Below the pieces are notes generated by a model. It saw nothing but the letters and a program-made list of their open reading frames with translations, was not told where the DNA came from and made no database searches. From positions 5,119-69,118 of the forward strand of contig CAITLU010000024.1 in assembly GCA_903893315.1 (NCBI GenBank): a DNA stretch of 64,000 nucleotides. Direction: 5' to 3'. The position numbers and the translations under genes were made by a program. Shown here in pieces: positions 1,672 through 41,200 of this stretch (the stretch's first letter is position 1; every line of letters starts with the position of its first letter). Source of the DNA: an uncultured bacterium (GTDB lineage Bacteria > Desulfobacterota > Binatia > UBA1149 > CAITLU01).

Positions 1672-2691
1672 GTGCTGCTCTTGGCACTGACGGCGGCTGT
1701 CGGCGTATCCGGTTGCCGCGCTGCCTACGTGGCCCGTCTCGCCTACGAAGAGGTCCGCTACCTCGCCGGTGCGCGGCCCATCGAGGAACTGATTGCGCAG
1801 ACGCAGGATCCGGCGCGAGTCCAGGCGTTGGCGCTGGTACTTGAGGTGCGTCGGTTCGCGGCCGGCCGCGGGCTCGATCCCGGCAAGAGCTATCTCGAAG
1901 TCGCCGACACCGGTTCCGCCGCTCCCTTCCAGGTGGTGACGGCCGCCCCCGTCGATCGGCTCGAACCCTATACCTGGTGGTATCCCGTGATCGGAGCGAT
2001 TCCTTACCGCGGTTATTTCGACCGGGGTCAGGCCGAAGCCTTTGCAGCGAGTCTGGAAGCTGAGGGGCTCGACACCCGCATAGTCGAAGCTTCGGCCTAT
2101 TCGACTCTGGGCTGGTTCAACGATCCGCTGCCTTCCAGTGTGCTCGATCGCGGGCCGCTGGTGATCGCGACCACGGTGCTGCACGAATTGGTGCACCAGA
2201 ACTTCTTTGCGCCCGGCCAAGTGGCCTTCAACGAAACGCTGGCGACTGCCGTAGCGTACCGTCTGGCTGCGGAATTTTTTGACGGCAGGGGGGACGCTGC
2301 ATCAGGCGATCGCTTGCGACGCGCAAAGGCGGTGTGGCTGGCCCGAGGTCGGGAACTCGACGCGGGGGCTGTGTCACTCCAGACGCTGTTCGATCGCGCT
2401 CGTGCCGAGGGCTGGCCGCGCGAGCGTCTGCTCGCCGAGCGCGACGTGATTTATGGGAGCATCAAGGAGTCGGCGGCCAGGCAGGATTCTTCGTTCGCCG
2501 CCGCGCTGGCCGACGGCGGGCTTAACAACGCATCTTTTCTCGCCATTTATCGCTACGCCGAACGTGCGGCTCTGCTCGACGACTTTCTCGCCGGCCAGGA
2601 AGGGGAGTGGCTGACGGCGGCGCTGGCCCGTCTTCGCGTGCTCACCCAAAGCGGCAAGGACGCTTACGAGGCGGTGGCGAACCGGTCTTAG
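1672..2691 (+). CDS. Putative zinc-dependent aminopeptidase/metalloprotease lipoprotein (HExxH)
   Basis: ORF 1438..2691, with the real start probably internal. In-frame WRPVLLLALTAAVGVSGC reads as a lipoprotein signal with a lipobox. There is an HELVHQ HExxH motif, and the architecture resembles the predicted-aminopeptidase family. The start codon is uncertain (GTG near 1672). Confidence 0.6.
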   Translation: MLLLALTAAVGVSGCRAAYVARLAYEEVRYLAGARPIEELIAQTQDPARVQALALVLEVRRFAAGRGLDPGKSYLEVADTGSAAPFQVVTAAPVDRLEPYTWWYPVIGAIPYRGYFDRGQAEAFAASLEAEGLDTRIVEASAYSTLGWFNDPLPSSVLDRGPLVIATTVLHELVHQNFFAPGQVAFNETLATAVAYRLAAEFFDGRGDAASGDRLRRAKAVWLARGRELDAGAVSLQTLFDRARAEGWPRERLLAERDVIYGSIKESAARQDSSFAAALADGGLNNASFLAIYRYAERAALLDDFLAGQEGEWLTAALARLRVLTQSGKDAYEAVANRS

Positions 2692-2870
2692 CGCCGGTCT
2701 GAACGGCGGCCGGCGGCCGTTCGTTGCGGCGGGGATCGGCGTATCGCGGTTCGTGCCCCGCGGCGAGTTGCTCCGGCAGCGGTGCGCGCCTAAGAAACCA
2801 ACTGCTTCGCACGGGTCACTACGCCGCGGACCCGATGCGCAAAGAGACTCCAAGAAAAGGAAACAGCTAA

Positions 2871-3791
2871 ATGGCCACGCAAAGAGTCAAGGAAATTTTG
2901 AGTTGGTATGCCGGTGAGAACCCGGGCGTGCTGTCGAACCTGGCCCGCATCATGAACACGGGGAAACTGGCAGGCACCGGCCGTTTCGTGATCCTGCCGG
3001 TCGACCAGGGCTTCGAGCACGGCCCGGCGCGCAGCTTCGCGCCCAATCCCGCCGGCTACGACCCGCGCTACCACTTCCAGCTCGCCATAGACGCCGGGTG
3101 TAACGCCTATGCCGCACCGCTGGGTTTTCTCGAAGCCGGTGCCGCCGAGTACGCCGGCGATATTCCGCTGATCCTGAAGCTCAACAATCACGACTCGCTG
3201 GCGCCTGACGGCTCCGACCCTGCGCCGTCGGTGACCGGCGCCGTCGATGACGCGCTTCGACTCGGCTGCGCGGCCATAGGCTACACGATCTACCCGGGGT
3301 CGGCGCAGTTCCAGAACATGTACGAGACGCTCGCCGAACTGACCCGCGACGCGAAGGCTTGCGGTCTGGCGGTGGTCGTGTGGTCGTACCCGCGGGGTTC
3401 GGGCCTTTCCAGGGACGGCGAGACCGGAATCGACGTCACGGCCTACGCCGCGCAGATCGCCGCGCAGCTCGGCGCCAACATCATCAAGGTGAAGCCGCCC
3501 ACGGCTTTCGTCGAACAGGGTGAAGCCAAGAAGGTCTACGAAAAAGAGAAGATCGCCGTCGGGACCTTGTCAGAGCGCATCGCGCATGTGGTGCAGTCGT
3601 CCTTCGGCGGCCGCCGCATCGTGATCTTCTCGGGCGGAGCCAAGGGCGCCGACGAGAAGATCTTCGACGAGTGCAAGGCCATCCGTGATGGCGGCGGCTT
3701 CGGCTCCATCATCGGACGTAACAGCTTTCAGCGTCCCAAGAAGGAAGCTCTCGAATTCCTCGGCAAGGTGATGGCGATCTACAAGGGCTGA
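2871..3791 (+). CDS. fbaB: Class I fructose-bisphosphate aldolase (DhnA/archaeal-type family)
   Basis: N-terminal VILPVDQGFEHGP and overall DhnA-family aldolase features at 306 aa. It is followed by a strong terminator. Confidence 0.75.
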   Translation: MATQRVKEILSWYAGENPGVLSNLARIMNTGKLAGTGRFVILPVDQGFEHGPARSFAPNPAGYDPRYHFQLAIDAGCNAYAAPLGFLEAGAAEYAGDIPLILKLNNHDSLAPDGSDPAPSVTGAVDDALRLGCAAIGYTIYPGSAQFQNMYETLAELTRDAKACGLAVVVWSYPRGSGLSRDGETGIDVTAYAAQIAAQLGANIIKVKPPTAFVEQGEAKKVYEKEKIAVGTLSERIAHVVQSSFGGRRIVIFSGGAKGADEKIFDECKAIRDGGGFGSIIGRNSFQRPKKEALEFLGKVMAIYKG

Positions 3792-3823
3792 GCGGTCGGC
3801 GTTTCCAGCGCCGCCGCGCGAAT

Positions 3824-3866
3824 GAAAAAGGCCCCGTACCGTTGTTGGTACGGGGCCTTTTCTTTG
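3824..3866. terminator. Bidirectional rho-independent terminator between fba (+) and citrate synthase (-)
   Basis: GAAAAAGGCCCCGTACCgttgttGGTACGGGGCCTTTTCTTTG is a perfect 12-bp GC-rich stem flanked by an A-tract on one side and a T-tract on the other. Confidence 0.75.
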
Positions 3867-3904
3867 TTGCGCCGCCGCACTTTCGGTGCGACCTCGGCGG
3901 TGTA

Positions 3905-5236
<1,332 letters not shown>

Positions 5237-5374: not shown

Positions 5375-6025
5375 CTAGCCGGCGGAGGGCGTGCGCAGGA
5401 TTCCGGTCGTGAACATCTCCACGAGCGTGTCGGCGTGGGCTTCGACGTGTTCCGGAGAGAGCGGGTCGAAACCCCATAGCAGGTCGATCAGCGGTGCGGC
5501 GTCGAAGAAGTGCGGCACCGCACCGAGGAAGGCAAAAATCACGGACTGGATCGGCAGCTGTTTCAGGGCACCGCTGTCCAGGCCGGCCTGGAACATCATC
5601 TCGAGTTGTCGTGTCAGCGGACGCAGGTGTTTGTCGACCATCCATTCCAGGCGCGGGCTTCGCGCGGCGGACTCGGAGATGATCAGGCGCGCTACCTCGG
5701 GATGCCTGGCGTTGAAGTAGACGAAGCGGCGCGCCACGATGCGGACGGCCTCGTGCGGTTCCGACCGCATTACGTCCTCTTCGATGCCCTGGAGTACGGC
5801 CGTAAGGCGCCCGAAGGCCAACTCGACGGTGGCCCTCCACAGCGCTTCCTTGGATCCGAAATGGTAGTGGATGAGGGGCTGGGTGACGCCCACCCGGCGG
5901 GCAACGGAGGCCGTGGTCGCACCATCGTAGCCGTTCTTGGTGAATTCGACGAGCGAGGCCTCGAGGATCCTGTCGCGTGAAATCGTGGAGGATCGCCCTC
6001 GTTTGCTGCTGCTGGTTTCCGGCAC
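5375..6025 (-). CDS. TetR family transcriptional regulator
   Basis: N-terminal HTH ...RDRILEASLVEFTKNGYDGATTASVARRVGVTQPLIHYHFGSKEALW... is the classic TetR signature. It is divergent from the BNR-repeat gene. Confidence 0.85.
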   Translation of the reverse strand: MPETSSSKRGRSSTISRDRILEASLVEFTKNGYDGATTASVARRVGVTQPLIHYHFGSKEALWRATVELAFGRLTAVLQGIEEDVMRSEPHEAVRIVARRFVYFNARHPEVARLIISESAARSPRLEWMVDKHLRPLTRQLEMMFQAGLDSGALKQLPIQSVIFAFLGAVPHFFDAAPLIDLLWGFDPLSPEHVEAHADTLVEMFTTGILRTPSAG

Positions 6026-6256
6026 CGGTCCGCTCCCCCTGCCGATTTAATCGGCCCTGTTGATCTGTCTGGCTGTAAGTTGCTCGGTCTTACAGCATCA
6101 GCCACCCTTCTTCGGATCCCGCAATCCTCCAAAGGCTTCACGCATCCAAGAATCGCGACTATTTCGGAATAAGGCAATAAGGCAAGCTCCGGTGTTGCTG
6201 ATTCGCGCGGTAATTTGGCCGTTGTAGAGGTCTCAGGATAGGCTAACCTCTGTTCA
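6026..6256. promoter_or_regulatory. Divergent intergenic region (TetR <-> BNR protein), relatively AT-rich; likely promoters/operator
   Basis: The only clearly AT-enriched ~230 bp stretch in the first 10 kb, lying between divergently transcribed genes. No specific operator could be identified by eye. Confidence 0.3.
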
Positions 6257-7717
6257 ATGATTCGCTCAGCGTCGGTCCCCGTCCGTAACGTTTTACTCCG
6301 TCATTGGTTTCTTACGTTCCTCTGCCTGCCGGCATTGCTCGGGCTTGCGCCGCCGGCTCGGGCCCAGGTCGGGTTTTTCGGTTCTTCGAGCGTTCTGAAC
6401 GCTGGTGCCGACAAGGATCAGAGAAAGGACGAGGCGGTGCGCATCGCTGCAGACGGTCTCGGCGTGTGGGTGGCGGTGTGGCAGTCCGCAGGTTTCGGTC
6501 CCGGCGGTTGCGGACCGCTGGGGCGTGATGCCGACATCCTGTTCGCGCGCTCGGCCGACAATGGTTCGACCTGGACGGCGCCGGCTCCGGTAAGTTCGCT
6601 GGCCGGCGAGGACAAGGGGCAGGATGTCAGTGCGGCTCTGGCCACCGACGGGAAGGGAACCTGGATCGTCGTCTGGAGTTCGACGCAGGATCTTCACGGT
6701 CGGGACAAGAGCGACCGCGACCTTCAGTTCGTCGTTTCCACCGACAACGCTCTGACCTGGAGCGCGCCCCGCAATCTCAACACCAATGCCGAGCACGACT
6801 GGGGCGACGACGAAAGCCCCGACATCGCAACCGACGGCGCCGGCCGGTGGTTGGTGGTATGGCAGTCGACCGATTCCCTGGGGAATACCATCGGTGGTGA
6901 TCGCGACATCCTGGTGTCCAGTTCGAGCGACGCCGGCAAGACCTGGACCGCGCCGGCCCCGGTAGACAAAGGGGCCGCGCACGACCGGCGATCCGACGAC
7001 GCCCCCCGTCTGGCCACCGACGGGCACCGGCATTGGGTCGTCGCCTGGTCTTCGGGCGGTCCGACCGCCGACAACCTGCGCTACGACCACAACATCCTGG
7101 CGGCGACCTCGGCCGACAACGGGGTGACGTGGCAGGAGCCCCGAGCGGTAGTCGGCAGCGGGGACGAGGCCCGGCGGGATTGGGGGCCGCGTCTGGCAAC
7201 CGATGGGCAGGGGCACTGGCTTTGCGGTTGGTCCTCGACGGATTCGCTCGGCGGCCGCATCGGACTTGATCGAGACGTCTTGGCTGCCCGTTCCGATGAT
7301 AACGGTACGACTTGGACCGCGCCCGCAGCGCTGAATCGGGAGGCCGACCGTGATGTGGGCGACGACGGCTCTCCGGAGATCGCAACCGATGGCCGTGGTT
7401 CCTGGATCGCGGTGTGGACGACGTGGGACAATCGCAACAGGACCATCGGCTCCGACGGAGATCTCGTCGTTGCCATGTCGAGCGACAATGGTCAGACGTG
7501 GACCCCGTCGCGGCCGCTGAACGCCAACGCCGGCGACGACTACGCCGAGGATCTCAATCCCTCCGTGGCTACCGATCGCCGCGGTCTTTGGCTGGTGGCC
7601 TGGGATACCAACGAGCCTGCCGGTGGAGCCATAGGTTCAGATCGCGACCTGCTGGTGGTCAGCGGCCGTTTCGGTTCCGAAACCGCAGGCCCTCCCGCAC
7701 CGTCGCCCGCACGCTGA
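6257..7717 (+). CDS. Secreted BNR/Asp-box repeat protein (sialidase-like beta-propeller fold), six tandem ~75-aa repeats
   Basis: Signal peptide (…LCLPALLGLAPPARAQ). Six repeats each carry S-x-D-x-G-x-T-W (SADNGSTWTAP, STDNALTWSAP, SSDAGKTWTAP, SADNGVTWQEP, SDDNGTTWTAP, SSDNGQTWTPS) followed by a LATDG..W..VW element. Confidence 0.8.
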   Translation: MIRSASVPVRNVLLRHWFLTFLCLPALLGLAPPARAQVGFFGSSSVLNAGADKDQRKDEAVRIAADGLGVWVAVWQSAGFGPGGCGPLGRDADILFARSADNGSTWTAPAPVSSLAGEDKGQDVSAALATDGKGTWIVVWSSTQDLHGRDKSDRDLQFVVSTDNALTWSAPRNLNTNAEHDWGDDESPDIATDGAGRWLVVWQSTDSLGNTIGGDRDILVSSSSDAGKTWTAPAPVDKGAAHDRRSDDAPRLATDGHRHWVVAWSSGGPTADNLRYDHNILAATSADNGVTWQEPRAVVGSGDEARRDWGPRLATDGQGHWLCGWSSTDSLGGRIGLDRDVLAARSDDNGTTWTAPAALNREADRDVGDDGSPEIATDGRGSWIAVWTTWDNRNRTIGSDGDLVVAMSSDNGQTWTPSRPLNANAGDDYAEDLNPSVATDRRGLWLVAWDTNEPAGGAIGSDRDLLVVSGRFGSETAGPPAPSPAR

Positions 7718-19221: not shown

Positions 19222-20130
19222 GTCCTGCCCGATCCTGCCGACTTCAAGGTTGGTCGCGGTCCTACTTACGCCAGGGCTCTGCGGCCAGCGCAGTCTTAGC
19301 GGTTGCCGGCCGGTGCCTCCAGTGAACGCGAAACCGTTCCGGACGAATGCATGACGGCGTTGACGGCGAGGCTCGTGGGCGTGAGCGAGTGATTGGCCGC
19401 GGCGGACCCGGAGTGCGCGATGCGCGCACCGGACCGGAACGGGGCAGGGGGAGGAGTTCGTGCAGTGATTGTTAGTGGCGTGGTTCCGACGAGGGGGTCC
19501 GGATGGGAGCCGGCACCCCGCTCGAAACAATCCAGGCCGCGATCCGGCCGGTGCGCGAAACCGACAGTGGGCCGCGTTCCTGCGAGCGTCAAGTCGTCGC
19601 AGTCGCACTTCTTGGCTCTCGCGCATTTCAGCCTCGGGTCGCTTCGAGGGAGAGAGGGAGCAGCTTGCGTTGTGGGAGGATGCACCGTCCGCTCGATTCC
19701 TGGGATCGGCGTGTCTGCGTGGGATAATAGGGAGATAGGAGACGTAACTCGATTTCACCCGAAGCCCTGACCGCGCTTTCTCCGGCGGCCCGAGAGGTCG
19801 CGGGCGAGCCTCGGCGCACGCCCTGCCCGCAAAATACTTAGCACGCGTTTGCGGCGGCAAACGCTTGTTTGGGAGGTGCGGCATTGAAGCCGCGCTTGCG
19901 CGCGATCTAAGAGCCGAACCGGCCGGTCCCGGGCCTTGCAAGAGCCTGCGGGCTTGGCGTTGCGGGAGCCGGCGGGCCTCCTGCGTCTCGTCCGTTGGCT
20001 GCCTTTTCTCCGTTGCCTTCCGCGGGGCAGCGCGGCGAGAATCGCGGTGTGCCGACCACTGTGGTTTTCCGCCTTGGGGCCCTGCTTGGGGTCGCGAGTT
20101 TCGTCGTCCTTTGGCCCGTGCCCCGAATCA

Positions 20131-20771
20131 TCCGCCCAGGTCGTGCCTGGCGGCCAGATCACCAAGGCCAACTCGGAGAGGATCGAGGCGCTGGTCCCGC
20201 CGGGCGTCAAGTGGCGTGTCAATAACGGCATGAACATCGACATCGTCAAGACCGAGCGTTTCCGATCCGCGCCGACTACAAGGCCGTCACCGAGAAGTAC
20301 TCGGCCCAGGTGGTACTCGTCGTCAACAACGAACTCGACAACCGGGTGGCTGGCAAGCCTTTCCCGGGGATCGATCCGAACGATTCTCAGGCTGCGCAGA
20401 AGATCATGTACGACTTCGGGCACACCCATTACTGGCCCGAGACCCTCGACCTTCACCTTACCGTCGCCGACACAGGCAGCATCTACGTCGATACCAACGG
20501 CAACCGCCGCTATAACGTCGAGCGTCACTTCGTGCCCGACTGGATGCGCGTGCTGGGTTTCCAGGGCCGCATCAAGAACGAGCGGAAGCCGCAGTTTCTG
20601 CCGAACAATGACAAGGTATTTCAGAAGGCGGGGCTCTATCCTCTGATCGAGCCTTTCGACTTGAAGGGAGTCGGCGGAGTGTCGTTTCGCTGTCTCGACC
20701 AGACCGAGCAGGACGACACCTGGCTTGATCTTCCTTTCGTGCGCCGCCCGCCCCGTTGTCGCGGAAAGTAA
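20131..20771 (+). pseudogene. Frameshifted and truncated gene fragment (possibly DUF1329-like secreted protein). No signal peptide, a -1 frameshift near 20255, and no C-terminal half.
   Basis: A protein-like translation (…GQITKANSERIEALVPPGVKWRVNNGMNIDIVKTERF | IRADYKAVTEKYSAQVVLVVNNELDNRVAGKPFPGIDPND…HTHYW…) continues across two frames, separated by a 1-nt slip in a TTTCC run. The reading ends abruptly at 20771. Confidence 0.4.
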
Positions 20772-20921
20772 CTGGACAGCGAGGCTCCCCTGGGGCACAA
20801 GAAAAACCGTCGCGGAAAAACCCGTGTCGGGAACACCCGCGGGTAAATCGAACCGGCCCTCGCCGGTTTGAACTGCAACCGCAGATATTCGGTAGAAGGC
20901 TGAGGGACTGGAGGTCGGATC

Positions 20922-23804
20922 ATGAGGTTTCCGAAAGCGGGCAAGAGCGTGGCCGGCGTGGCGATGGCGGTTTCGTCGATGCTGCTGGGGGCCGCGCCGG
21001 CAGCCGCAGCGGGCTTCTGCGGTGCGGGTTCCAACGTCCCGCGGCCGCAGAACGTGATCCTGTTCGTGCTCGACGATTCCAGCCCCTCGGATCTTCCGTT
21101 CTTCAACACGCCGTTGGTGTGGCCGGACCAGAACAACCCTCCGCGGACCCTGCCGGACCCGGTGCTCACGGAAGGCGCCCTGCGACTGCCCGAATACAAC
21201 AGGGCGATGGCCAGGTTCTACGCTTCGCGTAACTGTCCGAGCGGCCTGTGTTCGCTCGGAGACAATTTCCTGCACCCGACCTCTTCGTCATCGCTGGTGG
21301 TTCCCGTGGATCTCGACGGCGATCAGACGGTGGTTTCTGCGACCAACGCCGACTCCTTCCGCTACGTCGAACGTAATCAAGCCGGCAATCTCTGCGGCGA
21401 AGAAACCGGGACCTGCGATGCCAACACGGACGTATTGTCGTCACACGGTGGCTTGCGCAAACTGGTAGAAGAGGGGCTTGCGTTTCGGCGTTTCTACGCC
21501 ACTTCGGCAAAGTGCGCGCCGACCCGCGCTTCGATGTTCACCGGTCGTTATCCGGGACAGGTCGGAGTGAGTCTGAACGGGAGCAAACTGGAAATTTCGG
21601 AACTGACGGCCGGCGACCTGCTCAAGGGACTGCCGGGATGCAAGGACGACGACGAGAACACTCCGTGTTATTCCACCGGCCATCTCGCCAAGTGGCATCT
21701 GGGAAGCAAGGAACACGCGAACCAGACTCCCTGGCAACGCGGCGCTGACGAGGCGGTATTCTTCCGCGGAGCGAGCCGGGTTCCGTTCAAGGACAGCCAG
21801 TTGCTCTGCGGTCCGCCGCCGATGCCGCACAACCCACCGGCGAATTACCGCCAGGGTTTCTATTGCAACAACGCGGCGCTGGCGGCGGCGGTTCCAGGTT
21901 GCATAACGAGCTCGCAGTGTGACGCCGCGTGTCCGGGTGGCCCTGGACGCTGCGCGTGCGCGGAAGGGCGTGACGTCGTGAGCAGTGACGACAACTTCTG
22001 CTATGAACTCGACCCGACGCCCTGTGCTTCGGATTCCGAGTGCCGGGCTGGTGCTAGCGACCACGACACCTGCGTGGCGTGGGGCCAGAACGTCGGCCCC
22101 GGAAATCAGACTGCCTGCCATCCTGACGATGCGGATCTGAATCTGGATTGCTGCACGCCACGCGCCAAGACTCCGACGCGCGGGCCTTTGGAAGGTCTCT
22201 ACTATTTCAAGAACAAGCAGATCGACGCCGGTGGGACGGCCAAGAAATTTTGGTTCAAGGACGGCGAGCGTGATCTTCTCACCGGTGAATCCCATTACCC
22301 GTGCAACTCCGATGCTAGCTATCTCGATTCGGGGCTCGAAGGCTGCATGTACGACACGCGGGTCTACCGCGACTGGGCGACCAATTTTATCGGTCGTCAT
22401 GCCGACGAACCGTTCTTCCTCACTATTCCTCTGCACTCGCTGCACGAACCCATGGACGCTCCGGTGCGCACGTTGGCGCACTACTCGACGGCGGGCCTGG
22501 TGACTAACGCTCCAGGCACCGCCGACAGGTTCTGGAGTTCGCTCGAGGAAGTGGACGCCGCTATCGGCAAGGTGATCGAGACCCTGGAAGGCGGCGTCTG
22601 CAACAGCAAGTCGTCGCCGGAGACAGCCGGCTTGAAGTGCGCGTCCAACGGCGACTGCGGAGGGACACCCGGAGCGGCTTGCGTGACCGATCTCGCTCAG
22701 CGAACCCTGATTCTGTTCACTGCCGACCAGGGCCAGACCAACGCACCCTACGGCAGCGCGATCCTGCGCGAGGGAAAGGGCTCGACGTTCGACGGCGGTC
22801 TGCGTGTCGGATTGCTGGCGTGGGATCCGGGTCTGGGCGTGGGAAGTGCGGCACCGGGCGGACATATGCGCGGCGATCCGTTCGTCGCCAGTCAGGTGGA
22901 CATATTGCCGACCGTGTTGGATGCGGCGGGCTGTGCGCCGAACCACGGAGACGATCAATACGAGATCAAGGCGTGCGTCGGCAGGAACGTCAGTCGGCCG
23001 AGTCTCTGCGACAGCGACCAGGATTGCGCGGCGGTTGGTGGCGGATCTTGCGTGTCGAGGTTGATAGCGGGCAGAACGATGCTGCCGGCGCTGGTGGGAG
23101 CGGGAACGCCGGTACGTGATTTTGCCTTCGCGTCGTATCCGAGCGAGCCGCAGATGATTTCCGTTCGCAGTGGATACTACAGCGACGGTTGCAGCGGCAA
23201 TGCCGACTGCAATGGCGCGGCGAAGATTTGCAGCTATGTCGGTGAACAAGGGCCGGACGCAGCGTCCGGAACACTGGACCGCAGCCGCCTCGGTGGATCC
23301 TGCGATGTCTGCGAGAGCGATGGTGACTGCAGCGGCACCATGTGCATCGCCAGCGGTACGTACTGCGTTCCAAGTACCGATTCGAGTTATCTGAGTCGTT
23401 GTACGGCTGAACCCGCCGGTGGAGCGCTGGATCCGGTCGGTGACGAATGTGATCCGGCTGCGTTCCAGCGCTGCTGGTCGGCCGTTGATTGTGGCCGGGA
23501 TGAGAGATGCGTTCAGGTGGAAACAACTTGCAACGGATGCCGTGCGGCGGCGTGGAAACTTATGGGCGGTGGCGGCGTAGGGGTCGGCAACCCGAGCAAG
23601 TCGGTCGCTCTCTTCGACCTCGGCAGCAACCCCGAAGAGAGCGAGTCCCTGGACTGCATCGACGAGGCCAAGAACCCGAGCAACCCGGACTACGCCAAGT
23701 TGAGCGCGACTGACGATGATCTGCGCCGACGTCTGGACGGCTGGTTCGACTGCATCAGCGCCGGTCTATCGGTCGATTGCGACACGCAGAAATCCCCGCA
23801 GTGA
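20922..23804 (+). CDS. Secreted sulfatase (formylglycine-dependent; CxPxR present) with multiple large cysteine-rich insertions, 960 aa
   Basis: Signal peptide; NVILFVLDD; the CAPTRASMFTGRYP sulfatase signature; GHLAKWHLG; PFFLTIPLHSLHEP; LILFTADQGQ. More than 60 Cys are spread through long inserts. Confidence 0.8.
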   Translation: MRFPKAGKSVAGVAMAVSSMLLGAAPAAAAGFCGAGSNVPRPQNVILFVLDDSSPSDLPFFNTPLVWPDQNNPPRTLPDPVLTEGALRLPEYNRAMARFYASRNCPSGLCSLGDNFLHPTSSSSLVVPVDLDGDQTVVSATNADSFRYVERNQAGNLCGEETGTCDANTDVLSSHGGLRKLVEEGLAFRRFYATSAKCAPTRASMFTGRYPGQVGVSLNGSKLEISELTAGDLLKGLPGCKDDDENTPCYSTGHLAKWHLGSKEHANQTPWQRGADEAVFFRGASRVPFKDSQLLCGPPPMPHNPPANYRQGFYCNNAALAAAVPGCITSSQCDAACPGGPGRCACAEGRDVVSSDDNFCYELDPTPCASDSECRAGASDHDTCVAWGQNVGPGNQTACHPDDADLNLDCCTPRAKTPTRGPLEGLYYFKNKQIDAGGTAKKFWFKDGERDLLTGESHYPCNSDASYLDSGLEGCMYDTRVYRDWATNFIGRHADEPFFLTIPLHSLHEPMDAPVRTLAHYSTAGLVTNAPGTADRFWSSLEEVDAAIGKVIETLEGGVCNSKSSPETAGLKCASNGDCGGTPGAACVTDLAQRTLILFTADQGQTNAPYGSAILREGKGSTFDGGLRVGLLAWDPGLGVGSAAPGGHMRGDPFVASQVDILPTVLDAAGCAPNHGDDQYEIKACVGRNVSRPSLCDSDQDCAAVGGGSCVSRLIAGRTMLPALVGAGTPVRDFAFASYPSEPQMISVRSGYYSDGCSGNADCNGAAKICSYVGEQGPDAASGTLDRSRLGGSCDVCESDGDCSGTMCIASGTYCVPSTDSSYLSRCTAEPAGGALDPVGDECDPAAFQRCWSAVDCGRDERCVQVETTCNGCRAAAWKLMGGGGVGVGNPSKSVALFDLGSNPEESESLDCIDEAKNPSNPDYAKLSATDDDLRRRLDGWFDCISAGLSVDCDTQKSPQ

Positions 23805-24754: not shown

Positions 24755-25570
24755 TCAGGGAAAAGAGATGAACTGCGGTGTTCCAGTGTGGCCGCCGTTG
24801 TCGATCAGCACGTCGGCATCGGGGCCGCCGGTGATCTTGACGTAAGCTCCGACCGTGATGTTTCCCACCGTCACCGTGTCGACGTCGTTGCCCGTGTTGA
24901 CGAGGATCTTTCCCCGCCAGTTGGCATCGGTCAGCGTGAACTGGTCAGCGCCGTTGCCGGTTTTGACGGCCAGCTTCCCCTTAGGATCGACGTGGTGCGA
25001 GTTTGCGAGGACGACGATGTCGTCACCGTTCTTGGTCGTGATGCCACCGCGATACTCGACGTCGTCGAACAGAACCGAGTCCGGGCCGTTGCCTGTGACT
25101 ATTTTGCTCGGCTCGGAGATGTCGGTGTTGTTCATGTCGATGAGGTTGGTACCGTCACCCATGGTCAGTCGCAGCTGCTTGTTGAGAACCACGTTGTTCA
25201 TGGTCACAGAAGAATCACCGATGCCGGTAGTGATCTTGCACAGGCGGGTGATGGTCACGTTGTTCATCACCAAGTCGTCGGAGCCGCCTCCCATGTCGAT
25301 GTAGACTTCGTGATTGGCGACTGGGGTAGTGTAAGGGCTCGACGCACCATTGATGGTGGTGCTTCCATCGCCGGGAGTTACCAGAAATACGCTGGTGTCG
25401 AGCGTACCCTCGATGACGACCGAGTTGTCGGCCGCGTCGCCGGTCACTGTCATGACGCCCAAGTTGACGGAGACGGAGACATTCCCGGAGGCCCTGGCCT
25501 GTGAGGCGCCAAGCGCGAGCACTGCGAAGCCAACGGCTGACATAAGAACCACGGATTTTGTGTTGATCAT
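24755..25570 (-). CDS. Secreted repeat protein, probably a parallel beta-helix (Thr/Gly/Asp/Asn-rich ~20-aa pseudo-repeats)
   Basis: Signal peptide MINTKSVVLMSAVGFAVLALGASQARA. Recurring (V/I)T-G-x-G-x-D-x-V and N-N-V-T units. Confidence 0.55.
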   Translation of the reverse strand: MINTKSVVLMSAVGFAVLALGASQARASGNVSVSVNLGVMTVTGDAADNSVVIEGTLDTSVFLVTPGDGSTTINGASSPYTTPVANHEVYIDMGGGSDDLVMNNVTITRLCKITTGIGDSSVTMNNVVLNKQLRLTMGDGTNLIDMNNTDISEPSKIVTGNGPDSVLFDDVEYRGGITTKNGDDIVVLANSHHVDPKGKLAVKTGNGADQFTLTDANWRGKILVNTGNDVDTVTVGNITVGAYVKITGGPDADVLIDNGGHTGTPQFISFP

Positions 25571-34041: not shown

Positions 34042-35514
34042 ATGATGAGCGCAGGGGAAACGAGATTCGCCCGACTGGTCGCCGGGATGTTTTTCGCGGT
34101 GTCGTTGGCCAAGCTCTTTACCCACGAGCCGTGGCGCGATGAGTGGGGCCCATGGGGAATCGCGCTGGCCAGCGACGGTCTGCGGCAACTGTGGCGGGCG
34201 TTGCCGTACGAGGGGCACGCCCGGTTCTGGTACTTCCTGGTCTTTGCGCTCGAGCGCGTTACCGGCCGCTTCGAGTCGGTACAACTGGTCACCGCGGTGT
34301 TCGCGACTGTCGCTGTGTGGGTAGTTGCGAGGTTCGCGCCGTTCCCGCGCTGGGCCCGGGTGCTGTTCGCCGTCGGCTACTATCCGCTCTTCGAGTACGG
34401 GTCGATCGCGAGACCTTACTCGATCGAACTGGCCGCGACATGCGTGGCCGCCGCTGTCTTTTGCCGCGCGCGCCGCGCGCCGCTGCCGTTGGCCGTCGCG
34501 CTCGTGGTTCTCGCGCAGACGACGATCTACGGCGTGATCCTGGCTGCGGCGTTCGGCGTGGCCTGGCTCGCTGATCTCTGGCGGGCAGCGCCGGGCGATC
34601 GCGCCTTGCCGTCGCACAGTTGGATCGCGGCCGGGATCGTCGGCGTCAGTATGGTTGCAGCGGTGGCACAGATGGTGCCGCCGTCCGATTCGACGTTCGC
34701 GCGCGGATGGCGCACGAAATTGGAGCCGTCGCGCGTGGCGCGCGTGGTGGCGACGGTGACGCGCGGAGTGACGCCGCTACCGCGCCCTCAGGTACACTTC
34801 TGGAACACCCACGTGCTGGACGGCAGCCCGCGGGTAGAGTGTGCCGTCGGCGCCGCGATGCTGCTCGTGTTCTCGTTGCTGTTCGTGCGCTCGCCGTCCG
34901 CATTGCTGCTGTGGATCGTCGCGACCGCCGGCCTGCTGGCCTTCGAGTACATCAAGTACGAGGGCTACGCGCGTCATCAAGGCCACTTCTTTCTCGCTTT
35001 CCTGGCGGCGGCGTGGCTCGCGATGGAGGCGCAGCGGGCAGCCGGAGCGAAGAATAATGTCGTGGCCTCGCTCGGGCTGGCGGTGCTGGCCGTGGTTCTC
35101 GTCGTCAACGCCGCTGGAGGACTGCTGGCCGTGGCGGTGGACTGGACGTTCCCGTTCTCGACCGCGACCGCCGCCGCGCAGACCCTGCGCCGCCGCGGTC
35201 TGGCCGAACTCCCGGCCGTGGGCCGCCGTGGATCGACCACCGCCGCGGTCGCTGCCGTGCTCGGACGGCCGATCGTGCTTGCCGGCACCGGCCGCACCTC
35301 GACGTTCGTCAGTTGGGACCACACCTACAGGGTTCCGTCGCTGCCGCGTGCGACCGAGGAAGCACGGCGCCTGGCGGCGACGTCAGGTTCGGCGGTGCTG
35401 CTCATCCTCGACACTCCGCTCGTGAAACTTCCGCGCCGCGTCGAATGGCTGGCTTCGATGGCCGAACCAATCGTGCGCGACGAGCAGTTCCACATCTACG
35501 TAGTGCAACCCTGA
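34042..35514 (+). CDS. Integral membrane protein, possibly a GT-C-type glycosyltransferase / DUF2029-like
   Basis: About 11 predicted TM, with an acidic W-rich first periplasmic loop (HEPWRDEWGPWG). The family cannot be assigned from sequence by eye. Confidence 0.5.
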   Translation: MMSAGETRFARLVAGMFFAVSLAKLFTHEPWRDEWGPWGIALASDGLRQLWRALPYEGHARFWYFLVFALERVTGRFESVQLVTAVFATVAVWVVARFAPFPRWARVLFAVGYYPLFEYGSIARPYSIELAATCVAAAVFCRARRAPLPLAVALVVLAQTTIYGVILAAAFGVAWLADLWRAAPGDRALPSHSWIAAGIVGVSMVAAVAQMVPPSDSTFARGWRTKLEPSRVARVVATVTRGVTPLPRPQVHFWNTHVLDGSPRVECAVGAAMLLVFSLLFVRSPSALLLWIVATAGLLAFEYIKYEGYARHQGHFFLAFLAAAWLAMEAQRAAGAKNNVVASLGLAVLAVVLVVNAAGGLLAVAVDWTFPFSTATAAAQTLRRRGLAELPAVGRRGSTTAAVAAVLGRPIVLAGTGRTSTFVSWDHTYRVPSLPRATEEARRLAATSGSAVLLILDTPLVKLPRRVEWLASMAEPIVRDEQFHIYVVQP

Positions 35515-39841: not shown

Positions 39842-41200
39842 ATGCTCTCCGCTAGCGCGGCCCGGGACCTTCGCGGACGCAGAGGCGAAGCTTGGAATCG
39901 GCTGCCGTTCTCATACTATCGCGCGTCCGTGTTCCCGGTCTTACTGAAATTCGGCCCCTTTACCGTCTACAGCTTCGGCGTGTTGATGGCGCTCGGGTTC
40001 TACTTCGGATCGTTGGTTTCGGTGAAGGAGTTCGAACGCCGCGGCGGGGATGGCGAAACACTCTGGAACCTTCTGGTATGGGTGTTTCTCGGCGGCCTCG
40101 TCAGTTCGCGGGTGCTGTCGATCTTCAACAACCCTTCGGCGTTTTTCGAGAGCCCGCTGTCGGAGATCTTCGCGGGCGCGGGTTTCGTCTGGTACGGCGG
40201 GTTTCTCGGCGGCGCGGCGACGGCGTGGCTGCTCGGCCGTCGAAAGAACCTCGCCTTCTTGACCCTGGCCGACTGCTGCGCGCTGGGGCTGGCCCTCGGT
40301 CAGGCTTTCGGGCGTGTGGGCTGTCACGTCGCGGGCGACGGGGACTGGGGCAAGGTCACCGATCTGCCTTGGGGCGTCGCCTATACGCATGCCATCGTCG
40401 GCTGGTCCTACCCTGATGGAGTCCTCGTGCATCCGACTCCACTGTACGAGGTGGCCGCTTACCTGGCGCTGTTCGCGTTCCTGTGGCGCTACCGTCATCG
40501 CAACCCGCCGACCGGGTCGATGTTCGCGGTCTATCTGATCGGCAACGGCTTCGCGCGTTTCTGGGTAGAGTTCCTTCGCATCGAGCCGGTGCTGGCTCTG
40601 GGGTTGACGCAGGCCCAGTGGATCGGCATGGCGTTGACCGCGGCGGGTGCCATATGGCTGCTGCGTCGCGGTCCGGCCGTCAACGCGAGAGCGACGGCCG
40701 TGGGATTGGCCGCCCTGCTCCTGGTGGTTCCGCTTGGCGGCTGCGACAGCAAGGTCGGTGTCTCCGAGGGAGACCTGGCCCCCGATTTCATCCTGCAGAG
40801 TGCCGACGGACAGACGCGCAAACTTTCCAACTATCGCGGGCACGTCGTGCTGGTGAATCTGTGGGCGACCTGGTGTCCGCCCTGCATGGAAGAGATGCCG
40901 GTGCTCAACCAACTGGCCGAGCGGTATCGCGACAAGGGCTTGGTGGTGCTCGGTCTTGCCGGGGATGACGACCCTCAGCGGGTCCGCGACTTTGTCGCCA
41001 AGTCACCGCTCAAATTCGAAGTTCTGCTCGACTCGGACGGTGCGATCGGAACTCAGTATGGTATAACCGGCTACCCGGAGACCTTTTTCATAGATAGAGA
41101 AGGCCGGGTTCGCGACAAGATCATCGGAGCCATTCCCGGCCGGGCCGGCGGTGTGTCTCCCCAGTTCGCGCAGCGGCTGGAAAGTCTGTTGGGTGGTTAG
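39842..41200 (+). CDS. lgt: Prolipoprotein diacylglyceryl transferase (Lgt) fused to a C-terminal TlpA/ResA-like thioredoxin domain (WCPPC)
   Basis: N-terminal 270 aa: GPFTVYSFGVLMALGF, the GRVGCHVAGDGDWG (Lgt signature-like) and HPTPLYE motifs. C-terminal 170 aa: …RGHVVLVNLWATWCPPCMEEMP…GYPETFFIDREG… is a thioredoxin fold with a CxxC motif. The start codon is uncertain. Confidence 0.75.
   Translation: MLSASAARDLRGRRGEAWNRLPFSYYRASVFPVLLKFGPFTVYSFGVLMALGFYFGSLVSVKEFERRGGDGETLWNLLVWVFLGGLVSSRVLSIFNNPSAFFESPLSEIFAGAGFVWYGGFLGGAATAWLLGRRKNLAFLTLADCCALGLALGQAFGRVGCHVAGDGDWGKVTDLPWGVAYTHAIVGWSYPDGVLVHPTPLYEVAAYLALFAFLWRYRHRNPPTGSMFAVYLIGNGFARFWVEFLRIEPVLALGLTQAQWIGMALTAAGAIWLLRRGPAVNARATAVGLAALLLVVPLGGCDSKVGVSEGDLAPDFILQSADGQTRKLSNYRGHVVLVNLWATWCPPCMEEMPVLNQLAERYRDKGLVVLGLAGDDDPQRVRDFVAKSPLKFEVLLDSDGAIGTQYGITGYPETFFIDREGRVRDKIIGAIPGRAGGVSPQFAQRLESLLGG

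Follow-up and report, generated by a model that had tools for sequence, protein, structure and literature searches.

In this study we describe a 960-amino-acid (aa) protein encoded in a 64,000-nucleotide stretch of contig CAITLU010000024.1, which derives from an uncultured bacterium (Binatia); "the window" denotes this whole stretch throughout. Judged from its sequence and from a predicted structure, the protein is probably an active, Sec-exported and formylglycine-dependent sulfatase of family S1. It would belong to a distinct clade without a name of its own, in which a core of ~450 aa is expanded by three insertions (A, B and C) and by an enlarged C-terminal region. The novelty lies in the architecture of the clade as a whole: conserved elaborations, apparently stapled by disulfides and including a recurrent four-cysteine cassette, have doubled the size of a single core. 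A conserved and unannotated operon partner, present in most lineages, is new as well.

The sulfatase gene and its catalytic core

The features of the gene are given below with window coordinates and strand. Conservation, here as in the parity and co-occurrence figures further down, refers to an alignment of 57 clade members; 7STT and 9FO1 are solved S1 sulfatases.

20910..20914, +, Shine-Dalgarno sequence GGAGG, 7 nt 5' of the sulfatase ATG, read from the sequence
20922..23804, +, sulfatase gene, 960 aa plus stop codon, ATG start, stop at 23802-23804
20922..21011, +, signal peptide (aa 1-30) with basic n-region, hydrophobic core and a putative cleavage site between AAA and G
21051..21077, +, first core strand NVILFVLDD with the metal-ligand pair Asp51/Asp52; D51 invariant, D52 conserved in at least 90%
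21090..21446, +, Insertion A (aa 57-175), separating the DD strand from the helix bearing the catalytic Cys; ~100 aa over 7STT
21513..21554, +, formylglycine signature C198-A-P-T-R202-ASMFTGRYP; C198 and R202 invariant, P200 at least 90%; aligns to CSPTRAS of solved sulfatases
21690..21704, +, KWHLG with catalytic Lys257/His259; K257 invariant; aligns to KWHLG of 7STT and 9FO1
21780..22286, +, Insertion B (aa 287-455), largest of the Cys-rich blocks; 15 Cys from C296 to C411
22410..22445, +, core strand PFFLTIPLHSLH with catalytic His508; H508 conserved in at least 90%; aligns to PFFL...H of solved sulfatases
22590..22688, +, Insertion C (aa 557-589), four-Cys cassette C560/C573/C579/C587
22704..22781, +, TLILFTADQG...REGKG with metal ligands Asp602/Gln603 and catalytic Lys619; T595, D602 and G604 invariant, K619 at least 90%; aligns to SDNG...LRxGK of 7STT
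22950..23801, +, enlarged C-terminal region (aa 677-960) with 24 Cys; canonical sheet and helix of the C-terminus together with several Cys cassettes

The original prediction had seen an alkaline-phosphatase-like sulfatase of the CxPxR type in this gene, and this assignment was borne out. The profile PF00884 matched with E=1.3e-23 and 84.2 bits (gathering score 25), in three stretches because the insertions split the match. No Pfam family besides PF00884 was found in the protein even at E<=1, and NCBIfam gave only equivalog matches far below threshold, the best being PehA (34.9 bits against a cut-off of 900). Among solved structures, the closest chains are without exception S1 sulfatases, namely 7STT, 9FO1 (S1_16), 6PRM (S1_19), GALNS and arylsulfatase A (ARSA). 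The best of these sequence matches have E=7.6e-18 to 1e-11, and the local alignments span aa 176-268, 454-556 and 590-676. By alignment, CAPTR (198-202), KWHLG (257-261), PFFL..H (497-508) and ADQG..GK (601-619) correspond to the catalytic motifs of the solved enzymes. All core motifs originally named are found at the places given for them, namely VILFVLDD at aa 45-52, CAPTRASMFTGRYP at 198-211, GHLAKWHLG at 253-261, PFFLTIP at 497-503 and ILFTADQG at 597-604; the distance between the first motif and CxPxR, put at about 150 aa, is 146 aa, and the quoted Cys-rich strings are present too. Residues N44, D51, C198, R202, K257 and D602, among others, are invariant in the clade; some members differ at position 259, and conservation was scored for all catalytic and metal-binding positions except 603.

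A search of the full-length model against the PDB with Foldseek agreed with the sequence comparison, the top 50 matches listed being S1 sulfatases with probability 1.0. The template modelling (TM) scores were 0.5-0.63 per target and ~0.3 per query, and therefore about half of the chain is extra. Profile, signature, metal and catalytic residues and predicted fold thus all place the protein in S1 (PF00884 / SulfAtlas S1). SulfAtlas divides S1 into 110 subfamilies (S1_1 to S1_110) plus unclassified sequences and assigns membership by phylogenetic placement or by at least 40% identity to members (PMC9825549). The best solved relatives by subfamily (S1_15, S1_16 and S1_19) align to our protein over short core segments only.

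The predicted signal peptide, in line with the claim that the protein is secreted, is taken to be of the Sec type because it has no twin arginine. A lipoprotein anchored through Cys33 was considered and found unlikely: AGFC is a poor lipobox, and the parity rule described below is kept if Cys33 is counted as paired. Up to 10 metagenome contigs from independent assemblies encode an identical sulfatase protein, the longest contig measuring ~159 kb, which argues that the gene is not an assembly artefact. The GC content of the window resembles the 63-67% found in all member-carrying loci that we fetched. The protein contains 51 cysteines (5.3%), fewer than the more than 60 claimed at first. Across the other open reading frames (ORFs) of the window (n=53, some of these calls being spurious) the median Cys content is 0.85% and the highest 3.1%, and ordinary sulfatases (n=30) have ~1%.

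Cysteine-rich elaborations shared by a clade

The AlphaFold2 model of the full-length protein, built on the 57-sequence alignment, is confident (mean predicted local distance difference test score, pLDDT, 89.4; predicted TM score, pTM, 0.92), including most of the insertions, and falls below a pLDDT of 50 only at aa 1-29, where the signal peptide lies, and in one short loop. Most of Insertion A exceeds 90, the exceptions being around aa 131-140 and 151-170. Insertion B follows KWHLG, exceeds 7STT by ~165 aa and has 13 invariant cysteines in sub-alignment A3; within the whole protein its pLDDT is 82-95. Insertion C precedes the DxG strand and adds ~20-30 aa over 7STT. The C-terminal region is ~168 aa longer than its equivalent in 7STT (459 aa in total) and scores above 90 over most of its length but drops to 56 at aa 831-840; here C770, C797, C803, C808, C815, C851, C857, C863, C870 and C873 are conserved in at least 90% of members. 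When Insertion B was modelled alone (17 sequences) the pLDDT dropped to 56.6 and the pTM to 0.49. This low-confidence lone model had no match in the PDB at E<=0.001 (best E 3.5), which is weak evidence since the model itself is poor. The structure prediction hence speaks against independent domains as originally envisaged, aa 287-455 being confident only in the context of the whole protein. With the reservation that the alignment for the lone block was shallower (17 vs 57 sequences), we read the insertions as loop elaborations that would pack on the core and form one compact body with it rather than autonomous modules.

The insertions are shared by a whole clade. A word-indexed protein search found seven full-length relatives (P0001-P0007), in which the insertions and ~30 cysteines are invariant down to 28-35% BLASTP identity. 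An exhaustive profile search of 1.84 billion representatives of clusters at 50% identity yielded ~60-70 cluster representatives of 720-1090 aa that aligned along the whole profile. Members of the clade have 25-64 cysteines each (3.4-7.1%), in contrast to 0.3-0.9% in the generic multi-domain sulfatases among the profile matches. C475 and C770 are invariant in the 57 members, and C296, C410, C461 and C797 are conserved in at least 90% of them. The members come from metagenomes and have no informative names in their sources, the one name given being "arylsulfatase A-like enzyme" for P0021. Repeating the word-indexed search with the 57-member alignment gave no relatives beyond P0001-P0007, and a scan of genome contigs with the family alignment, for which generic motifs (KWHL, WxxLEEVD) were selected, returned ordinary sulfatases only and no close relatives. 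In the literature we found no description of such a clade. Beyond the term "sulfatase" the clade is unannotated, as we found no specific Pfam or NCBIfam model, solved structure or paper for it. Because the insertions are common to the whole clade, they are not unique to this gene and the sulfatase is no one-off curiosity. The original prediction had also allowed that the Cys-rich segments might turn out to be a known fused domain commonly found on such enzymes; they are not a known fused domain, yet they are indeed common to a whole clade of such enzymes.

A comparison with the 73%-identical ortholog at locus L093 gave a ratio of nonsynonymous to synonymous substitution rates (dN/dS) of 0.14 over the whole gene. 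Taken part by part, the ratio is 0.10 in the core, 0.12 in Insertion C, 0.13 in B, 0.16 in A and 0.17 in the C-terminal region; all these values are rough since dS is ~1.4 and thus near saturation. By this measure the insertions are under purifying selection.

The cysteine counts themselves follow a simple rule. After a crude cut of the signal peptide, 53 of the 57 members have an odd number of cysteines in the mature protein (binomial p=6e-12); in ordinary sulfatases the count is odd in 20 of 30, which is not significant. An odd count fits one unpaired catalytic cysteine with all others paired, and by this rule 50 cysteines of the window protein would form up to 25 disulfides. Within the family, variable Cys columns are gained or lost together in even blocks. 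The clearest case is the block 560/573/579/587 of Insertion C, whose members are jointly present or absent (phi 0.83-1.0); further even blocks are 346/360/368/374, 685/696/702/710, 240/249, 399/411, 158/165, 827/843 and 797/873. The pattern C-x5-C-x(3-9)-C occurs eight times in the protein compared to 0.86 +/- 0.93 in 2000 shuffles, usually with another cysteine 7-12 residues upstream. Ser, Asp, Asn and Glu abound in its x5 segment (CASDSEC, CASNGDC, CDSDQDC, CSGNADC, CESDGDC), and several of these cassettes appear in the model as a strand, a short helix and a strand. Parity and co-occurrence together suggest that the insertions are very probably disulfide-rich, as had been supposed.

Proposed mechanism and alternative explanations

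We propose that a maturase encoded elsewhere would convert Cys198 of CAPTR to formylglycine, most likely while the chain is still unfolded, and that Sec would then export the chain. The remaining cysteines could pair once they reach the oxidising periplasm or the outside of the cell. Many of them lie in the recurring cassette C-x(7-12)-C-x5-C-x(4-9)-C, predicted as a strand, a short Asp/Ser-rich helical turn and a second strand; parity, co-occurrence and predicted secondary structure are what point to this step. The stapled loops would pack on the core as one rigid body and not as separate domains. Since Insertions A and B come directly after the strands with catalytic residues in the topology of the alpha/beta fold, they probably form the sides of the substrate pocket, and they may also harden the enzyme for extracytoplasmic life. 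Sulfate-ester hydrolysis would proceed in the standard way, with D51, D52, D602 and Q603 as metal ligands and formylglycine 198, R202, K257/H259, H508 and K619 in catalysis.

Some points weigh against this interpretation. Formylglycine, disulfides and activity are all predictions, and so is where the insertions sit with respect to the active site. Four of the 57 members break the parity rule, possibly as a result of the crude signal-peptide cut, and the near-saturated dS blunts the argument from selection. There is also no maturase gene within the 64 kb: neither the formylglycine-generating enzyme (FGE, PF03781) nor a radical-SAM/SPASM anaerobic sulfatase-maturating enzyme (anSME) was found by Pfam annotation of nearly all of the window, and a six-frame scan of the remainder with the hallmarks of FGE (N-x-W-E-W, RGGS-W) and of radical-SAM proteins (CxxxCxxC) gave no candidate, in agreement with the statement that none lies adjacent. 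The annotated genes flanking the sulfatases of seven relatives examined contain none either, L095 being only partly annotated. However, it is common for a single FGE or anSME to mature the products of many sulfatase genes to which it is not linked, and the missing maturase is therefore not anomalous and carries little weight. Finally, our best guess at the substrate, a sulfated glycan or glycoconjugate, comes from the nearest solved relatives and from the neighbours of distant members; it is weak because the lineage of the window has neither the partner nor glycan-type genes beside the sulfatase.

Could the Cys-rich blocks bind metal instead of forming disulfides, for instance as zinc ribbons, Fe-S clusters or metallothionein-like copper sites? 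The high cysteine density, a few CxxC, CxC and CC spacings (794/797, 870/873, 344/346, 410/411) and a weak MopE-type metal-motif match in the neighbour of one relative might be taken that way. We nevertheless consider it quite improbable, as the Sec-type signal peptide implies folding in an oxidising compartment, the prevalence of odd counts and the gain and loss in even blocks are what pairs predict and not clusters of three or four ligands, and the 960 aa include only 15 His and no metal-binding Pfam family at E<=1. Even less credit can be given to the idea that autonomous adhesive or recognition domains of a known kind (EGF-like, LDL-A-like, knottin-like) were fused into the enzyme. The short multi-Cys repeats with Asp-rich turns (CDSDQDC, CESDGDC) do have a superficial likeness to calcium-binding LDL-A and EGF modules; on the other hand, the cassette has four cysteines rather than the six of EGF or LDL-A, no such Pfam family was found at E<=1, and the poor lone model of Insertion B, without a relative in the PDB, contrasts with the confident placement of the same residues in the whole protein, whose pTM implies one rigid body. 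The EGF-like or metal-binding modules of the original prediction were thus not supported.

The activity of the core might also be other than that of a sulfatase. Promiscuity is well established in this superfamily, the best NCBIfam match is PehA, and the matches in the PDB include the PMH-type enzymes 4upk and 2vqr, so a formylglycine-using phosphonate monoester or phosphodiester hydrolase of the PehA/PMH type has to be considered. The PehA match, far below its cut-off, covers only ~30 residues around the formylglycine motif, though, and the stronger matches in both sequence and fold are carbohydrate sulfatases and arylsulfatase A; we would be surprised if this alternative were correct. We regard it as most improbable that the protein has lost catalysis and serves for binding or as a structural component of the surface, with only the sulfatase fold retained. 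Its unusual size and the repeat-rich secreted operon partners of its relatives might suggest such a role, but the catalytic and metal positions are invariant or nearly so across members that are ~30% identical, and the core has the low dN/dS given above.

Beyond the reading of an active, disulfide-stapled sulfatase, a further and rather speculative idea concerns the cassette itself, which we think unlikely to be right as a whole. The four-Cys cassette might be a new portable element, perhaps calcium-binding, that was inserted independently at five or more sulfatase loops and in the C-terminus of the partner, and the shared cassettes might mediate the assembly of sulfatase and partner into an extracellular machine that degrades or otherwise acts on a sulfated polymer in an uncultured high-GC lineage.

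Genomic context and relation to known sulfatases

In six of nine contexts examined, all six from more distant members of the clade, a homologous secreted protein of ~500-545 aa is encoded directly upstream of the family sulfatase:

L001, 8413-9975, partner
L007, 2-1510, partner
L091, 5701-7251, partner
L092, 1738-3372, partner
L095, ~5494-7425, partner
L097, 1-672, partner

In each of the five complete partner loci found, a family sulfatase comes next. The partners are Gly-rich and beta-solenoid-like with both ends Cys-rich, are mutually 34-61% identical over their full length, and carry the C-x5-C motif of the sulfatase near the C-terminus (CTLDANCTVGC and variants). They have no credible Pfam match (one sub-threshold, 18 bits against a 29-bit cut-off) and no relative in the PDB, and a scan of metagenomes with the partner gave only one new locus, L095. 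The window itself contains no partner homolog. Next to the partner-sulfatase pair of L091 lies a gene (2112-4625, -) for a protein of 837 aa with 42 Cys, Thr-rich linkers and the weak MopE-type match mentioned above; Cys-rich secreted proteins seem to be a general feature of this lineage. A protein of the thioredoxin-like type (PF13899), also secreted, is encoded two genes upstream of the sulfatase at the locus of P0007 (L001, 7677-8165, +) and again in L003, and may be a helper in disulfide formation or isomerisation.

The neighbours of the relatives hint at the breakdown of sulfated glycans or glycoconjugates, as far as distant members can tell: PF13229 Beta_helix genes are found in L001 and L091, a GH123_N-like gene in L095 and a SASA gene in L096, and BNR_2 sialidase-like genes lie directly downstream of the sulfatase in L007 and L095. 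The window encodes a BNR_2 protein as well (6257-7717, +), 34% identical to that of L007 and 13 kb away from the sulfatase.

Directly upstream of the window sulfatase lies the following feature:

20049..20771, +, DUF1329 gene remnant with a weak PF07044 match

This remnant corresponds only to residues 91-323 of an intact 523-aa ortholog, which is found upstream of the sulfatase of L093 (178-1749); ~640 bp of its 3' end are deleted. The same upstream ORF of 153 aa was called in three more contigs with the identical sulfatase (L004-L006), and the remnant is therefore not an error of a single assembly. The possibility that this ORF is a decayed operon partner was rejected, as it is the DUF1329 remnant. 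Between this remnant and an LMWPc phosphatase gene further upstream, ~0.8 kb (19222-20048) have no called gene; this stretch may hold what decay has left of the 5' end of the DUF1329 gene, or else the region that precedes it. Downstream of the sulfatase lies a convergent methyltransferase gene. Two ORFs of the window with good codon bias, of 271 aa (24755-25570, -) and 490 aa (34042-35514, +), have no Pfam match, and the first of them is absent from the otherwise syntenic L093. Elsewhere in the window an ORF of 452 aa (39842-41200, +) combines LGT (aa 32-273) with a C-terminal AhpC/TSA-Redoxin thioredoxin-fold domain (aa 309-432), an unusual fusion.

In fold, signature, metal ligands and Lys/His pairs the window protein resembles single-domain S1 carbohydrate sulfatases such as those of Pedobacter yulinensis (7STT), 9FO1 (S1_16), PsS1_19B (6PRM/6PSM, S1_19) and iota-carrageenan sulfatase (6BIA). 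These enzymes, however, have 445-480 aa, cover about half of the window protein and lack Insertions A to C as well as the Cys-rich C-terminal region. Human arylsulfatase A (1AUK, 1N2K) and GALNS (4FDI) are top Foldseek matches and, as Cys-type sulfatases of the secretory pathway, are stabilised by some disulfides. Yet they comprise ~480-500 residues with a handful of disulfides, against the ~25 predicted here, and do not have the repeated four-Cys cassette. Vertebrate Sulf1 and Sulf2, extracellular S1 enzymes of ~870 aa, contain a large insertion in the catalytic fold that governs substrate recognition. They are an analogy for how our protein may work and no more: the Sulf insertion is basic, hydrophilic and largely disordered instead of rigid and Cys-rich, and we saw no sequence relationship. 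Multi-domain or tandem bacterial sulfatases (P0075, P0081, P0084, P0090) are likewise large and carry PF00884; their size, however, comes from repeated or appended domains with 0.3-0.9% Cys, whereas the window protein is a single core expanded from within. With the Klebsiella atsBA operon, which joins a sulfatase to its maturase, the protein would share the need for formylglycine, but neither the window nor the annotated flanks of the relatives offer such a pairing.

The finding leaves known sulfatase chemistry unchanged, core and chemistry being those of a standard Cys-type S1 enzyme. Bacterial proteins with ~25 predicted disulfides are rare, and the clade provides an example of a common fold that has been doubled from within. 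A simple check of a sequence for an odd number of cysteines could point to further formylglycine enzymes whose other cysteines are all paired. A heavily cross-linked scaffold of this kind could give a robust extracellular sulfatase, which would be of interest to enzyme engineers, and the substrate specificity of the clade is probably a new one.

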